Source of the DNA: Squalus acanthias
Taxonomy: Eukaryota
Length of the DNA stretch: 64,000 bases
Direction: 5' to 3'
Assembly: GCA_030390025.1 (NCBI GenBank)
Contig: CM059432.1
Span: forward strand, 44,332,001-44,396,000
In this document: positions 5,647 to 35,323 of the stretch, one piece after another
Layout of the letters: every line of letters starts with the position of its first letter
Numbering within the stretch: position 1 is the stretch's first letter
Notes under the pieces: generated by a model
Told to the model about the DNA's origin: nothing
Databases searched by the model: none
What the model saw: only the letters and a program-made list of their open reading frames with translations
Program-made: the position numbers and the translations under genes

Positions 5647-6324
5647 AACATAGGAACATAAGTAGGCCATTCAACCCCTCTAGCCTGTTCTGCCATTCAA
5701 TGAGATCATGGCTGATCTGTGACCTAACTCTCTATACCCGCCTTTGGCCCATATTCCTTAATACCTTTGGTTAATAAAAAGCTATCAAGCTCAGATTTAA
5801 AATTAACAATTGATCTAGCATCAATTGCCATTTGTGGGAGCTAGTTCCAAACTTCTACCACCCTTTGAGTGTAGAAGTGTTTCCTAATTTCACTCCTGAA
5901 AGGTCTGGCTCTAATTTTTAGACTATGCCCCCTAGTCCTAGAATCCCCAACCAGCGGAAATAGTTTCTCTCTATTTACCCTATCTATTCCCCTTAATATC
6001 TTGAAAACTTCAATTAGATCACCCCTTAACCTTCTAAATTCATGGGAATACAACCCTAATTTGTGTAATCTCTCCTCATAACTTAACCCTTGAAGGCCAG
6101 GTATTATTCTGGTAAACCTACGCTGCACTACCTCCAAGGCCAATATATCCTTCCTAAAGTGTGGTGCCCAGAACTGCTCACAGTACTCCAGGTGTGGTCT
6201 AACCAGGGTTTTGTATAGCTGCAGCATAACTTCTACCCCTTTGTATTCTAGTCCTCTAGATATAAAGGCCAGCATTCCATTAGCCTTTTTGATTATTTTC
6301 TGTACCTGTTCATGATATTTTATG

Positions 6325-6532
6325 ATAGCAAAATACTGCAGATGCTGGAAATCCGAAATAACAACAGAAAACGCTGGAAAAACTCAGCAGGCCAGGCAGC
6401 ATCCGTGGAGAGAGAAAGAGAGTTGACGTTTCAGTTCTGATGAAAGGTCATCGACCTGAAACGTCAACTCTCTTTCTCTCTCCACGGATGCTGCCTGGCC
6501 TGCTGAGTTTTTCCAGCGTTTTCTGTTGTTAT
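6325..6532. mobile_element. Fold-back Penelope pseudo-LTR mini-element
   Basis: 80-bp inverted arms 6355-6434 / 6456-6535; TTCATGATATTTTATG duplicated at 6309-6324 and 6533-6548; arms homologous to the Penelope ends at 41785-41887 and 47011-47145. Confidence 0.9.
6433..6469 (+). ncRNA. Minimal type I hammerhead ribozyme motif (Penelope type)
   Basis: AGTT-CTGATGA-A-AGGTC-atc-GACCT-GAAA-CGTC-AACT: stem I AGTT/AACT, stem II AGGTC/GACCT, palindromic ACGT in place of stem III, GUC triplet. Confidence 0.8.
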
Positions 6533-7860
6533 TTCATGATATTTTATGTTCTCTGTACTTGGACCCTGTAGGCGCTTTGGACAGCCACTGTTTTTAGCTT
6601 TTCACCATTCACCTGTTCTATCCTTTTTAGGTCCAAAGTGGATGACCTCACATTTGCCTACATTGAAATCCATTTGCCACAGTTTTGCCCATTCACTTAA
6701 TCTATCAATATCCCTTTGTAATTTTATGCTTTCATCTACAATGCTGCCTATCTTTGTGTTATTGGCAAATTTGGATATGTGACTTTCTATGCCATCATCT
6801 AAGTCATTAAGAAATATTGTGAATAGTTGAGGCCCCAACACAGATCTCTGCAAGATACCACTATTCACATCCTGCCAATTTGTGTACCTACCCATTATCC
6901 CTACTTTCTGTCTCCTGCCGCTCATCCAATTTCCTAACCAGGTCAATAATTTGCCCTCAATTCCGTGGGCTTCTACCTTAGATAACAGTCTCTTATGTGG
7001 GACTATATCAGTTTATCAAATGCCTTCTGGAAGTCCATATAAATAGCATCCATAGACATTTCCCTGTCCACTACTTTAGTCGCCTCTTCAAAAAGTCCAA
7101 TCAGGTTTGTCAGGCATGACTTACCTTTTACAAGGTTCTGTCTGATCAACTGAAAATTTTTGAGGTGTTCAGACACCCTATCCTTAGTTATAGACTCTAG
7201 CAATTTCCCGACAACAGATGTTAGGCTAACTGGTCTATAATTCCCTGGTTTCCCTCTCTCGCCATTCTTAAATAGCGGAGTGACATGCTCAATTTTCCAA
7301 TCTTAAGGAATGGTTCCTGAATCTAGAGAACTTTGGAAGATTATAGTTAGGGCATCTGCAATGTGCTCGCCTACTTCCTTTAAAACCTTGGATGGAAACC
7401 ATCTGGTCCTGTGAATTTGTCACTTTTTCGTGCCATTACTTTCTTCATTGCTGTTATTTTACTTACATTAATTTTATTGAGTCCCTGTCCCCGATTCAAT
7501 ATTAGTTTCCTTGGGATTTCCAGCATGCTATCCTCTTCTTCTACTGTAAATACTGGTGCAAAGTAATTATTCAACATGTCTGTCATTTCCTTATTATCAT
7601 TGACAATATCACCACTTTGCGTTTTTAAAGGGGCCAACAATGCTCCTGACTACCCTCTTTTTTCCTAATGTAATTGTAAAAATTCTTTGTATTGATTTTG
7701 ATATCCCTTGCAAGTTTCTTTTCATACTCCCTTTTTGTAGCTCTTACTATCTGTTTTGTGACCCTTTGCTGTTCTTTGTATCTTTCCCATTTGCCAGGAT
7801 CTGTGCTATTTTTTGCATTTTTGTATGCTTCTCTTGTGAATGCTCATACTGCTGTTATTT

Positions 7861-10100: not shown

Positions 10101-10154
10101 AGATTTGGTATTTCCCTCCAATATTTCTTCTTCCAGTGGTTCAAGCTTCAAGTC
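10101..10154 (-). CDS. NECAB1: NECAB1 internal coding exon, 54 bp: DLKLEPLEEEILEGNTKS
   Basis: Acceptor tctgttttgcAG, donor GTaagt, phase 0-0. Matches recalled NECAB1 DLKLEPPEEEIIEGNTKS, just before the ABM-like domain. Confidence 0.95.
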
Positions 10155-28870: not shown

Positions 28871-28950
28871 CTTCTTTTCCAGGCGGTCAATTAGCTTCTG
28901 GAGCCTATTTATCTGGGTCATCCATTGGATGTCCTCATCTGCATGGACAC
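28871..28950 (-). CDS. NECAB1: NECAB1 internal coding exon, 80 bp: (G)VHADEDIQWMTQINRLQKLIDRLEKK
   Basis: Acceptor ttctgttgattcccaaAG, donor GTaagc. QWMTQINRLQKLIDRLEKK matches recalled NECAB1. Phase 1 in, phase 0 out. Embedded in ORF 28727..29020. Confidence 0.95.
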
Positions 28951-30830
28951 CTTTGGGAATCAACAGAAGAGAAAAAAAATCTACCATAACTTTAAAATGA
29001 CATGTGCAACCTGGTGGCATAAAATGTAATGGCCCAGATTTTCCTTTTGGCGATTATTGGCAGATATCTTGAGAGATATTTACCTGACTGGTAATAACCA
29101 CTGGCAGGTCTAATTATTTCCCACTGGTATTCATGCTGGTAGTAAGCAATTACAACTGAAAGGTCATAATAGCATATCTAGGGGTGGGTTAGCAAAACTG
29201 CTAATGTGTCTCTTGCTTTTCCATATTTCATACCCATGGAAAGGAGGTCAGCCTTAATTCTGAAGCGTCAGTTTCAGTTTTTGTTTTTCTTAAACATCTC
29301 CTCTCAATCTGTCTTCTGTATTCAGATCCCATTTATGATTTAAATAAATAACAAAAATATTTAAAGAAGTTTCTTTGATAAATAGCAACCTCTTTTAGCC
29401 ATTTACTGTAATTAGGTTTTCTGCCATCGGCAGTGATATACAATGGCCGATATTGGATCGAGCACCTTTTATATAGCCTGCCCAATTTTCCTTTACGTTA
29501 AAATTGAAAATATGAGACCAGCCAGGTGAAGTGCCTCTCTCTCTCTTTGATCATCTCTTCCTTCTTGTGTGGAAGTGCTTAGTCTTTACTGAGCCCATCT
29601 CTAAGACTGCAAAGATGAAATTGGGAACTTCCTGAACTTACATCCCACCATTCTGTGGCTCCATGCATTGATGCAGCAAAGTGTTGCACCACCAAATTGA
29701 CTGTCTAGTAGCAACTGATATTTTATGTCAATAGAAGGCCTGGTGTAAGCTCATTGGGGCACTTCATCCTTTGGAAACTGGCTAATCAGGCAAGACACTT
29801 GCTTAGGAGACTAACTAGAGAAAACTAAAAATACATTTTAAAAATAAATCTGCTGCCATCAGATTCAGGCAACCTTCAGGAGAAAGGGGAATGTCCCAGT
29901 CTCCTATGTAAAATAGGTATGTTAAACATTTGAAGCTAGAAAAATTTAACACATTTGATTCCCATTATGATCACTACAGGAACAGAAACTACACTCTCAA
30001 GTAAATACGTGGGAGTGGAGAGCGGGGCACTAAACGCAGGCCTGAGAACTCAGCTGAGTGCAGCTAAGGCAAACGACAAAGGGAAAAAGAGATGAGCGTC
30101 TACTAGGAAAAAAGTGACTACATGCTCTATACTGTAGTTACTTTTTGCTCTGTAATTTATCTGGCTTAGAGTATGATGTAACCTTAGCTGTGTTGGCTTA
30201 AAATGGATCTAGAAATGTATGGCACGATTGTGTATTGTGAGCATGACCAAGTATGCAGAAAGGGATCGATTTATTGTGCCATTTATTGTGTTTGTGCCTA
30301 TACTTCTGTCTATGACTATGATCTGAACCTTGAGCTACAATGGTCCACTCCATGTCAGCTCCAGAGCAAATGCCCTGAGTATAGTTACATTACATGCACG
30401 TGTCAGATGTTTCCCACAGTATTTATAGTTATTAGAAATATTACAATAAGAAGAATAAATACAAAGTACACTTCGGTATATAAAAAGAACAAATTCAGTT
30501 GAAAAATACTTCTAGGTTTATAATTATAGTTTAAGACAGCCTAAAGACCATGCATAACTATACTTACATTAACTATATCAAAGGTGCACATCATAAGGGC
30601 AACCAAGCCAAATCTGACCTGCTAAATTTGCTCTTGGGCCACTGGATAATCTGTTTGACTGACCAGTAATGTAACTAATCTAACAGCTCAATGGACTGGT
30701 TGATATCTGTCATATCACCAGCACAAGACTGGAAAGCACCAAATTGCTCATTATGGTCTGTAAGTTAAAGGCAAATAGAGTACTAGGATGCATAGCAAGA
30801 ACAATTCAGTATAACACTAAAAGAACTATA

Positions 30831-32815: not shown

Positions 32816-34933
32816 ACACAAGATTTGTCTATTTGTCTAATCTCCTCAAAATATTTTAGAATAAAAATGTATTGCTTGATCATTGTATGCATATTATAGA
32901 TGTATAAAAATAAGATGAAGAACATGTGCTGCTCCAAAACTTGATTGTTTTGTTCATGTAAAATAAACTGGGTCAAAAAGACTATATAATCGCTCTGCAG
33001 ATGGAGCCTGCAATTTCTTTTTTGGCTTGTTCATCCAACTTGAAACCTTCCCAGAATGAATTAAAGGTCAGTCTTACATCTTCTTGTAAATCTCCAGATT
33101 GCATCTCCAGTCTTCACCTGATTCACCAGTTAGCAGGAAGGCCTGTAAGCAATTATAGCCACGTAGCATATCATTTCAAACAAAATATCCCCTCACTTTT
33201 ATTCTTCCTTTCAGTTTTTTCCTCATTGGCGTGTTAAATTTGAGAAAGCAAATAATCTCTCTATCATGCTGAATGTTGCCTGTTGCATTTAGGAATGCGA
33301 TTATAAGCCGCAGTTTCAGTCTGAAGATTCGGGTCAATCTCAAACCTCTTATGAGAAGATTGTGGCAAAATGAGTGGGACATAACAGTATTGTGGGCAAA
33401 CAGACATAAGAAATAGGAGCAGGAGTAGGCCATTCGGCCCTTCAAGCCTGCTCCACCATTCAATAATAAGGGATTAAGATTGGGGCGGTAATGAGCTAAC
33501 GTGCTAACACTCAGAATCGCAAATCAGATACATACACATGGAATTAAACCCTTTCCTATTGAAGTAACTGGTTCATAAAGTGCACATGAGACCTTAGCAT
33601 ATTAAAAAAAAACGCCTTGCATTTGCTTTTGGGACACTTGGAAATCATCTTGATTGAGCAATACAGCAGTAATGTGACAACTACACAGTGGATTGGCTGA
33701 GATCTGCTACATCACCAGGACACTGCTGCCAACATTCTGAGGTAAATCGATATAATATTACCCATTGGACAAGGCCAAAAAAGTATATATAAGTCAAAAC
33801 ACATAATTAATATTTATTTTTCTGTCTGCTTTGTGCTTCTATAGTACTGATTCTATAGAGGCTGATTTTGAATTGACCGTTTCCATCAGACATTTGAATT
33901 CCGTTGGCGAGCTGCTCACACATTCGGAACAACTTGCTGATCAGGAAAGCGGTAAATTTGCTGCTTCTCCACGGAGCCCAGCTGATCCAAATAGGTTAAG
34001 AGAGGTGGAAGCGATCGTGAGGGAGGGACACAGCGGGGGTGTAACGGGGGTATGGATCTTTGTGGAGTGAGGAGGAACATTAATGCTCCTCCTGATCAAA
34101 CAAAAATCATTTAAAATGCTTTTTCTTACCTTCCTTTGAGCATCCTGCAGTGGTCCAATTAATGCTGCGTCTACTGGTATTTCAAAATTACATTGGGGTC
34201 CTAGTGATGTCAAAGAAACCCAATTTGTATGGGCTAATGAGGCTTCAAAGTGGCAGTAGCCTCGCTGTTACTGGGAAAGAGGCAATAAGTACTTTGCCGC
34301 CACTTTTATTGTGCTATTGTCCTGTTCCCACCACATGAGAGGGGGGGACGAAAATAGTGGTAGTTACAAAGATGAATACAGATGAGGGAGGACATTCAAC
34401 TCATTTAGCTCAATCTTTATTAGAAACCAATTGTTCCTGTTAAACCCCCCAATCTCCTCTTGATTGATTTCAGAGTTTCTGTCTTCATTTCCTTCATGCA
34501 TGAAGATGACAGCACTTGTTGAAAAGAGAATGAGTGCAAAATTCTGCTCCGTAGCACCTGTTGCTTGGGTGCTGCGGGTGCCGTTTTGGTTCCAAAATGG
34601 CATTCACAGCATGCGCGCAGACTTCTGGTGTGGGCCAAGACGGACGCCATCTTGGGTAGGGTGTTAACATGGGCGCAGAGAGCACGTGCAGAAGTATGCA
34701 GAATAGGCAGATCGTGATGTCAATCAACGTGTAACGCTGATTTGATGCCAACACTACTATTTTGGAGCTCAACGCTTCAGCTAACACCCTCTCTTAAGCT
34801 CGCACAGCTGAACATGCATTCAACAGCAGGAAGGACCCCCCACCAGCGCTATTTAAAGTTTCATCAACTACTTACAGGTTAAAAATGAGAAGTCGCACAA
34901 CACCAGGTTACAGTCCAACAGTTTTATTTAAAA

Positions 34934-34971
34934 TTACGAGCTTTCGGAGCTGTTGCCCCTTCGTCAGGTAA
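34934..34971 (-). ncRNA. Mirror hammerhead motif, sense to the NECAB1 pre-mRNA
   Basis: Reverse complement reads TTAC-CTGACGA-A-GGGGC-aaca-GCTCC-GAAA-GCTC-GTAA. Confidence 0.78.
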
Positions 34972-35023
34972 AGCTACAGTGAGGGAATCTATTACACATT
35001 ATATAGATTCCCTCACTGTACCT

Positions 35024-35061
35024 TTACCTGACGAAGGGGCAGCAGCTCCGAAAGCTCGTAA
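35024..35061 (+). ncRNA. Minimal type I hammerhead ribozyme motif
   Basis: TTAC-CTGACGA-A-GGGGC-agca-GCTCC-GAAA-GCTC-GTAA: stem I TTAC/GTAA, 5-bp stem II with one G-U, palindromic AGCT, CUC triplet. Confidence 0.8.
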
Positions 35062-35323
35062 TTTTAAATAAAACTGTTGGACTATAACCTGGTGTTGTGC
35101 GACTTCTCATTTTTGTCCACCCCAGTCCAACACCGGCATCTCCGCATCATACTTACAGGTTAGTTGCTGATTGATTTCTACTGGCTCTTACCGCATTTGT
35201 AGAAGAGTTTGGTGGTTTCTAGAGTTATTTAAAGTTGCTAAAGGCTACAGGGAGTGGTGTGGCAGGTGCTGAAGGACTTTGTCCTGACTTCAAGGATTCT
35301 GCACAGACCACTTGCTGCCAGAC

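Follow-up and report, generated by a model that had tools for sequence, protein, structure and literature searches.

Insertions of Penelope-like elements (PLEs) typically combine an inverted pLTR, a tail on one side and a target duplication (PMC3846280; bioRxiv 10.1101/2021.04.23.441226), and pairs of minimal hammerhead motifs on opposite strands, 100–700 bp apart, were described in PMC4209133. Among the PLEs, Neptune and Nematis are defined by a CX2-5CxxC motif between RT and EN and by CCHH in EN (bioRxiv 10.1101/2021.04.23.441226). In vitro, a PLE protein from the anole (a lizard) nicks and extends both target strands, and RT starts at two sites bounding the tail (PMC11167929). Subscription journals, Dfam and Repbase lay outside the scope of our literature search, in which no paper on the shark elements described here or on PLE double priming was found. 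The layout of the insert analyzed here is already published.

The window, a stretch of 64,000 nucleotides of Squalus acanthias DNA, contains at positions 34882–35149 an insert of 268 nt bounded by 13-nt direct repeats that are 100% identical. It represents the 3' end of a Penelope-like element encoding RT and GIY-YIG, inserted head to head with a 5' truncation in both copies, and both nicks likely primed RT. Its features are as follows:

34869..34881, + strand: left target-site duplication, 13 nt (direct-repeat detection)
34881..34992, − strand: inverted tail-less arm, 3' end of a Penelope-like element (inverted-repeat detection, parent alignment)
34934..34971, − strand: minimal type I hammerhead, loop II AACA, predicted cut between 34938 and 34937 (string search, descriptor, hammerhead numbering)
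34993..35002, no strand: junction of the two 5'-truncated arms, 10-nt spacer (exact centre unique in the genome)
35003..35114, + strand: direct arm, 3' end (pLTR) of the parent (parent alignment)
35024..35061, + strand: minimal type I hammerhead, predicted cut after C35057 (string search, descriptor)
35115..35149, + strand: one-sided 35-nt tail (comparison with full-length copies)
35150..35162, + strand: right target-site duplication (direct-repeat detection)

The 268-bp insert, its 13-bp duplicated flank and its 112-bp arms had all been proposed in a sequence-only reading of this DNA, and repeat detection recovered each of them. The 35-nt tail at 35115–35149, which has no inverted partner, was absent from that description. 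The two 112-nt arms are 97% complementary and differ at three positions (34911/35084, 34953/35042 and 34974/35021), of which only 34953/35042, in the stem II loop, lies within the hammerhead motif, as had been noticed. Both alleles at this loop position circulate in the family (A in 16 of 128 arms), and the mismatch is therefore not evidence of selection on the window copy. The alignment of the inverted arm to the parent continues to 35005, and at its other extremity the arm ends about 35 nt short of the tail end, at what was presumably the proximal RT start. The fold of the whole insert is far more stable than that of shuffled sequences (z = −30 against 200 shuffles).

A hammerhead core string occurs on both strands, one per arm, as previously claimed. 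Each arm's motif consists of stem I UUAC/GUAA, the core CUGACGA, an extra A, a 5-bp stem II, GAAA and a palindromic stem III AGCU, and thus has the CUGANGA...GAAA...UH core, the stems I and II and the palindromic stem III of a minimal type I hammerhead. A motif scan, which the sequence-only reading had proposed, was run with a full minimal-hammerhead descriptor and gave three matches in the window (the two arms and a further motif at 6.4 kb), whereas 20 shuffles yielded no match. Cut sites were predicted from established hammerhead numbering, with which the predicted cleavage after 35057 agrees. An Rfam scan returned no hammerhead at E ≤ 1 and only hairpin-type microRNA matches under their gathering scores. 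The single-strand fold of the isolated hammerhead was no better than that of shuffles (z about 0), as expected for a minimal dimer-type motif.

Frequent subfamily variants of the motif fall at N7, loop II, a G-U/A-U pair, distal stem I and H17, which are free or compensated positions. The stems covary, mostly between two families, with 96% of cells paired and double changes at 8 of 11 pairs, in a partly circular set of 17 distinct but related rows (the insert's family, its sister and the 6.3-kb family) picked after a descriptor scan that itself requires pairing; stem covariation among copies had been named earlier as a check. The hammerhead is under selection in active lineages, where it would function as a dimer in the parent RNA, and it is a passenger derived from the pLTR. 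In sister subfamilies (loci L191, L197, L216–L218, L224, L225 and L239), CCGACGA replaces CUGACGA in the core (U4 to C) and the stem II loops are varied.

The parent was found in the same genome. A pattern located just upstream of the hammerhead had 341 matches. Many of these form minus/plus pairs separated by 60 bp to 6.3 kb, which enclose the body of an element encoding RT and GIY-YIG, and tracing that body upstream led to full-length copies. The direct arm is 99.3% identical over 146 nt, tail included, to the full-length copy L146; the earlier attribution of the insert to Penelope mobilization is borne out. In full-length copies, the tail runs directly into the ATG of the ORF, and the tail end was presumably the distal RT start. 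One copy, L137, retains an open 892-aa frame from the ATG directly after the tail. L146 is arranged as inverted pLTR, pLTR, tail, ORF, pLTR and tail, with a 13-nt duplication; the ORFs of L146 and L147 contain stops or frame breaks. The window itself holds no coding parent, as had been stated: blastn matched only the two arms, and tblastn only two weak fragments, 29–36% identical, of other elements. The 5' and 3' pLTRs of L146 (2204–5582) carry different stem II alleles, and one such tandem source could give allele-discordant arms.

The 892-aa protein carries GxKF, DKG, YIDD, a C-X4-C-X2-C linker and a GIY-YIG domain with two cysteines between its GIY and YIG halves. RVT_1 scores over the cut-off in copy L091. 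The GIY-YIG domain was assigned by motif and by the PF01541 of homologues; Pfam PF01541 gave no direct match to the parent protein, and a GIY-YIG family search gave one match, which belongs to another PLE family. The best relatives are shark proteins with 80–90% identity, many with PF00078 and some also with PF01541. On these sequence features, the CX2-5CxxC linker and the CCHH in EN place the parent with Neptune or Nematis. The other traits of PLE insertions were also found, namely an ORF with RT followed by GIY-YIG, direct and inverted pLTRs (L146, L147), 5' truncation and target duplications of variable length, together with the optional 30–40 bp tail at one end (72 of 73 pairs).

These pairs come from 121 screened loci, comprising 29 mini palindromes, 72 pattern-selected and 20 RT-selected loci, among which 73 head-to-head pairs bounded by a duplication were recognized. 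In 72 of them, the end of one arm falls between 0 and −5 and that of its partner between −29 and −49; two tails occur in none of the 73, and the sole exception to the one-tail rule is L028 (−43/−17). Either arm can be the longer one, the inserts range from about 155 bp to full length, and the target duplication varies, mostly between 9 and 16 nt. Single-arm copies, with either end, are numerous, and three tail-less ones (L125, L134, L152) hold a 13–20 nt inverted scrap of tail. A sample not chosen for symmetry consists of 60 consecutive exact tail matches in the first 8.3 Mb of one contig, C1; it was counted by hand and includes sister subfamilies whose last 123 nt are shared. An opposed tail-less arm accompanies 45 of the 60, a second tail accompanies none, and half (30/60) are palindromes of 300 bp or less. 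From this proportion and the 21,639 exact occurrences of the tail in the genome, similar stubs can be extrapolated to number roughly ten thousand.

Several observations on individual copies may be added. The arms of L122, L129, L130, L138, L139, L108, L114 and L074 start at −159 to −161, at a TATATA run; this could be the transcript start, and the sampling pattern ended at about −157, so that a selection bias is possible. In L062 (458–4024), both long arms seemingly share an internal insertion of about 100 bp that is missing from other copies, which points to one source for both arms. Two unrelated copies, L043 (1588–2330) and L109 (2170–2943), are interrupted at the same base, 69–72 nt from the tail end, by the same GC-rich element of 740–770 bp (94% identical, TTGG duplication), relatives of which lie in the window at about 62.3–62.9 kb and 55.4–56.3 kb; a target preference or a co-mobilized composite are both possible. 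In L063, an element that we take to be Harbinger-like sits within a Penelope arm; presumed Harbinger-like transposase frames occur at L063:3121–4443 and in the window at 25.7–26.6 and 35.4–36.5 kb.

Any explanation must accommodate what was observed, namely the parentage of the arms, the continuum of sizes, one tail per insertion, unique junctions and arms that usually belong to the same subfamily. Since RT starts at two sites in vitro and nearly every pair carries a single tail, priming from both nicks is the simplest model. The endonuclease would make a staggered cut about 12–13 nt apart; one 3'-OH would prime cDNA at the distal start (the tail end, at the ATG) while the second would use the proximal start, which lies about 35 nt upstream. 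The two cDNAs would terminate independently of each other, after about 110–150 nt each, their ends would be joined, often via 0–5 nt of microhomology, and gap filling would yield the target duplication. More tentatively, a dimer of the RT-endonuclease may obligatorily prime at the distal site on one strand and at the proximal site on the other, mostly from one RNA pool, a few templates having been cut in the germ line by the hammerhead and leaving a pile-up of 5' ends; we regard this stronger version as possible, with the balance somewhat against it.

Some findings count against priming from both nicks. The high allele concordance between arms fits fold-back equally well as two copies from one source; 4 of 28 mini palindromes have symmetric centre overlaps of 7–12 nt, as self-priming would leave; and 15 of the 60 C1 tails have no opposed arm by BLAST, some of them owing to a short fetched stretch, in addition to the many single-arm copies.

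An alternative was put forward by Arkhipova et al. 2013 (PMC3846280): starting from the same parent, a single cDNA, or else an antisense template, would fold back and prime itself (self-priming) to give the inverted arm, after which trimming of one end by the endonuclease would leave a single tail. Arms do usually share alleles: in 64 pairs they differ at 2.1 positions in 80 within a pair, against 4.2 between insertions, indicating common subfamily alleles, and site −112 is concordant in 60 of the 64 (35 expected). Some centres are also perfect palindromes around TATATA (L007, L012, L013, L020). In its simple form, however, fold-back of a tail-primed cDNA requires the tailed arm to be longer, whereas a count over 67 hand-transcribed pairs (leaving out two nested pairs as well as L028, L111, L117 and L140) found the longer 5' reach in the tail-less arm for 38, in the tailed arm for 17 and in neither for 12, and fold-back from the proximal site could not add a tail. 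The remaining four pairs, discordant at −112, carry differing subfamily alleles, and the majority of junctions have an overlap no more than 5 nt away from zero. The lengths of the two arms are uncorrelated among mini palindromes and weakly correlated in longer pairs (rho 0.31, p 0.05). With one tail per pair as the rule and arm lengths that vary freely, the data favour double priming, and we consider self-priming unlikely. Conversion between arms after insertion was rejected as a source of their symmetry, because only 3 private variants are mirrored on both arms, against 57 on one arm.

The sequence-only reading had seen in the insert a separate non-autonomous, retrozyme-like family, that is, a palindrome transcribed, self-cleaving and copied as a unit by Penelope proteins. 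Mini palindromes are indeed abundant, accounting for half of the C1 tails, with sizes concentrated around 200 bp. Among 2621 candidates from a genome search, 40 were scored and all of these were mini palindromes, although the query selected for them; a DNA search with the arm alone gave no match, probably because very common words are skipped. Thirty of these loci were fetched, 29 of them distinct, and each has its own target duplication; all 29 centres differ and the centre of the window copy occurs once in the genome, so the palindrome was not copied as a unit. The size continuum moreover extends into the ORF, many mini palindromes have one arm cut inside the hammerhead (e.g., L188, L190, L208, L212, L232, L238), and, the ribozymes being on opposite strands, one transcript holds a single, sequestered one. 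By definition, retrozymes consist of tandem repeats on the same strand (bioRxiv 10.64898/2026.07.22.740005); here, in place of at least two such units, there is one ribozyme per strand, and the search for tandem arrays found none among the loci examined. Copying as a unit is accordingly very improbable, and the insert belongs to the short end of a size series of 5'-truncated insertions of a coding element. A MITE-like DNA transposon, for which the long inverted arms and the target duplication would speak, can be dismissed as having next to no likelihood, because the 35-nt tail makes the repeats non-terminal on one side, the duplication is variable in length (mostly 9–16 nt), and the arms derive from one end of an element with RT and GIY-YIG, a parentage that refutes the idea.

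Arms were also counted genome-wide by their apparent 5' start. At the base after the predicted cut there were 260, against 120 one base downstream, 69 three bases downstream and 114 three bases upstream (the last with a looser filter), an enrichment of about 2–4-fold at the predicted cleavage site that is partly confounded. Thirty loci, all with starts at the cut site, were inspected one by one: microhomology with the other arm accounts for 7, and a further 2 are indels rather than truncations. The pile-up is a weak hint of cleavage in vivo; in the species studied in PMC11167929, no read was found to end at the cut site.

The insert is intronic, since minus-strand exons of the host gene lie at about 28871–28952 and 10101–10154 and further exons lie past both window ends, and the hammerhead at 34934..34971 is on the strand of the host pre-mRNA. 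The earlier placement of the minus-strand hammerhead in NECAB1 pre-mRNA therefore stands as regards the intron of a minus-strand gene with mapped exons; the name is presumed from the human protein, and an ABM family search and the ESM Atlas did not identify the gene. In computed folds of the whole palindrome, the hammerhead stems have a pair probability of 0.0 on both strands, at a penalty of about 70 kcal/mol, and in any head-to-head palindrome the sense hammerhead is transcribed later than its own antisense. For the window copy, the prediction is that a 112-bp hairpin sequesters the hammerhead in either transcript, and cleavage of the host pre-mRNA is thus unlikely.

A palindrome of a second PLE family, laid out like the insert, lies at 6309–6548, with a 16-nt duplication, a tail on one arm only and one central hammerhead, all three stems of which are compensated relative to those of the insert's family; further relatives lie near 41.8, 47.1 and 61.4 kb. 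In agreement with the sequence-only reading, the 6.3-kb element has no similarity to the insert past 7-mers outside the core.

The locus is ordinary, and its value is as data on how Penelope elements form inverted repeats and tails. If the stronger version of double priming is correct, the genome would preserve, in about ten thousand mini palindromes, a readable trace of both asymmetric double priming and hammerhead cutting. Palindromic "double-hammerhead mini-elements" in shark genomes result from truncation and do not merit entry in catalogues as families of their own.

Among known systems, Pen2a_Av (PMC3846280) resembles the insert's family in its inverted 5'-truncated copy, a 30–40 bp tail on one end, a target duplication, a pLTR hammerhead and RT followed by GIY-YIG. 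It differs in that both arms of the window insert are truncated inside the pLTR with no ORF left, the shark tail lies just before the ATG and not inside the ORF, and the copy number is very high. With Neptune and Nematis PLEs, the 892-aa protein shares the C-X4-C-X2-C linker, DKG, GxKF and the two cysteines between GIY and YIG. The window motif shows, at the sequence level, no essential difference from the metazoan PLE minimal hammerheads of PMC4209133, with which it shares the extra base between 9 and 10.1, G10.1-C11.1, a short stem I and a palindromic stem III. The Anolis Poseidon element PAc (PMC11167929) likewise has two 3' ends one tail apart and an AC-rich tail about 110–120 nt downstream of the hammerhead; it belongs to another clade, its ATG lies inside the hammerhead, and inverted products are not discussed in the main text of that report. 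Finally, non-LTR retrozymes (bioRxiv 10.64898/2026.07.22.740005) are also non-coding, pLTR-derived and equipped with a type I hammerhead, but they are tandem repeats on the same strand, whereas the window insert is a dispersed pair in inverted orientation, each strand carrying one ribozyme.
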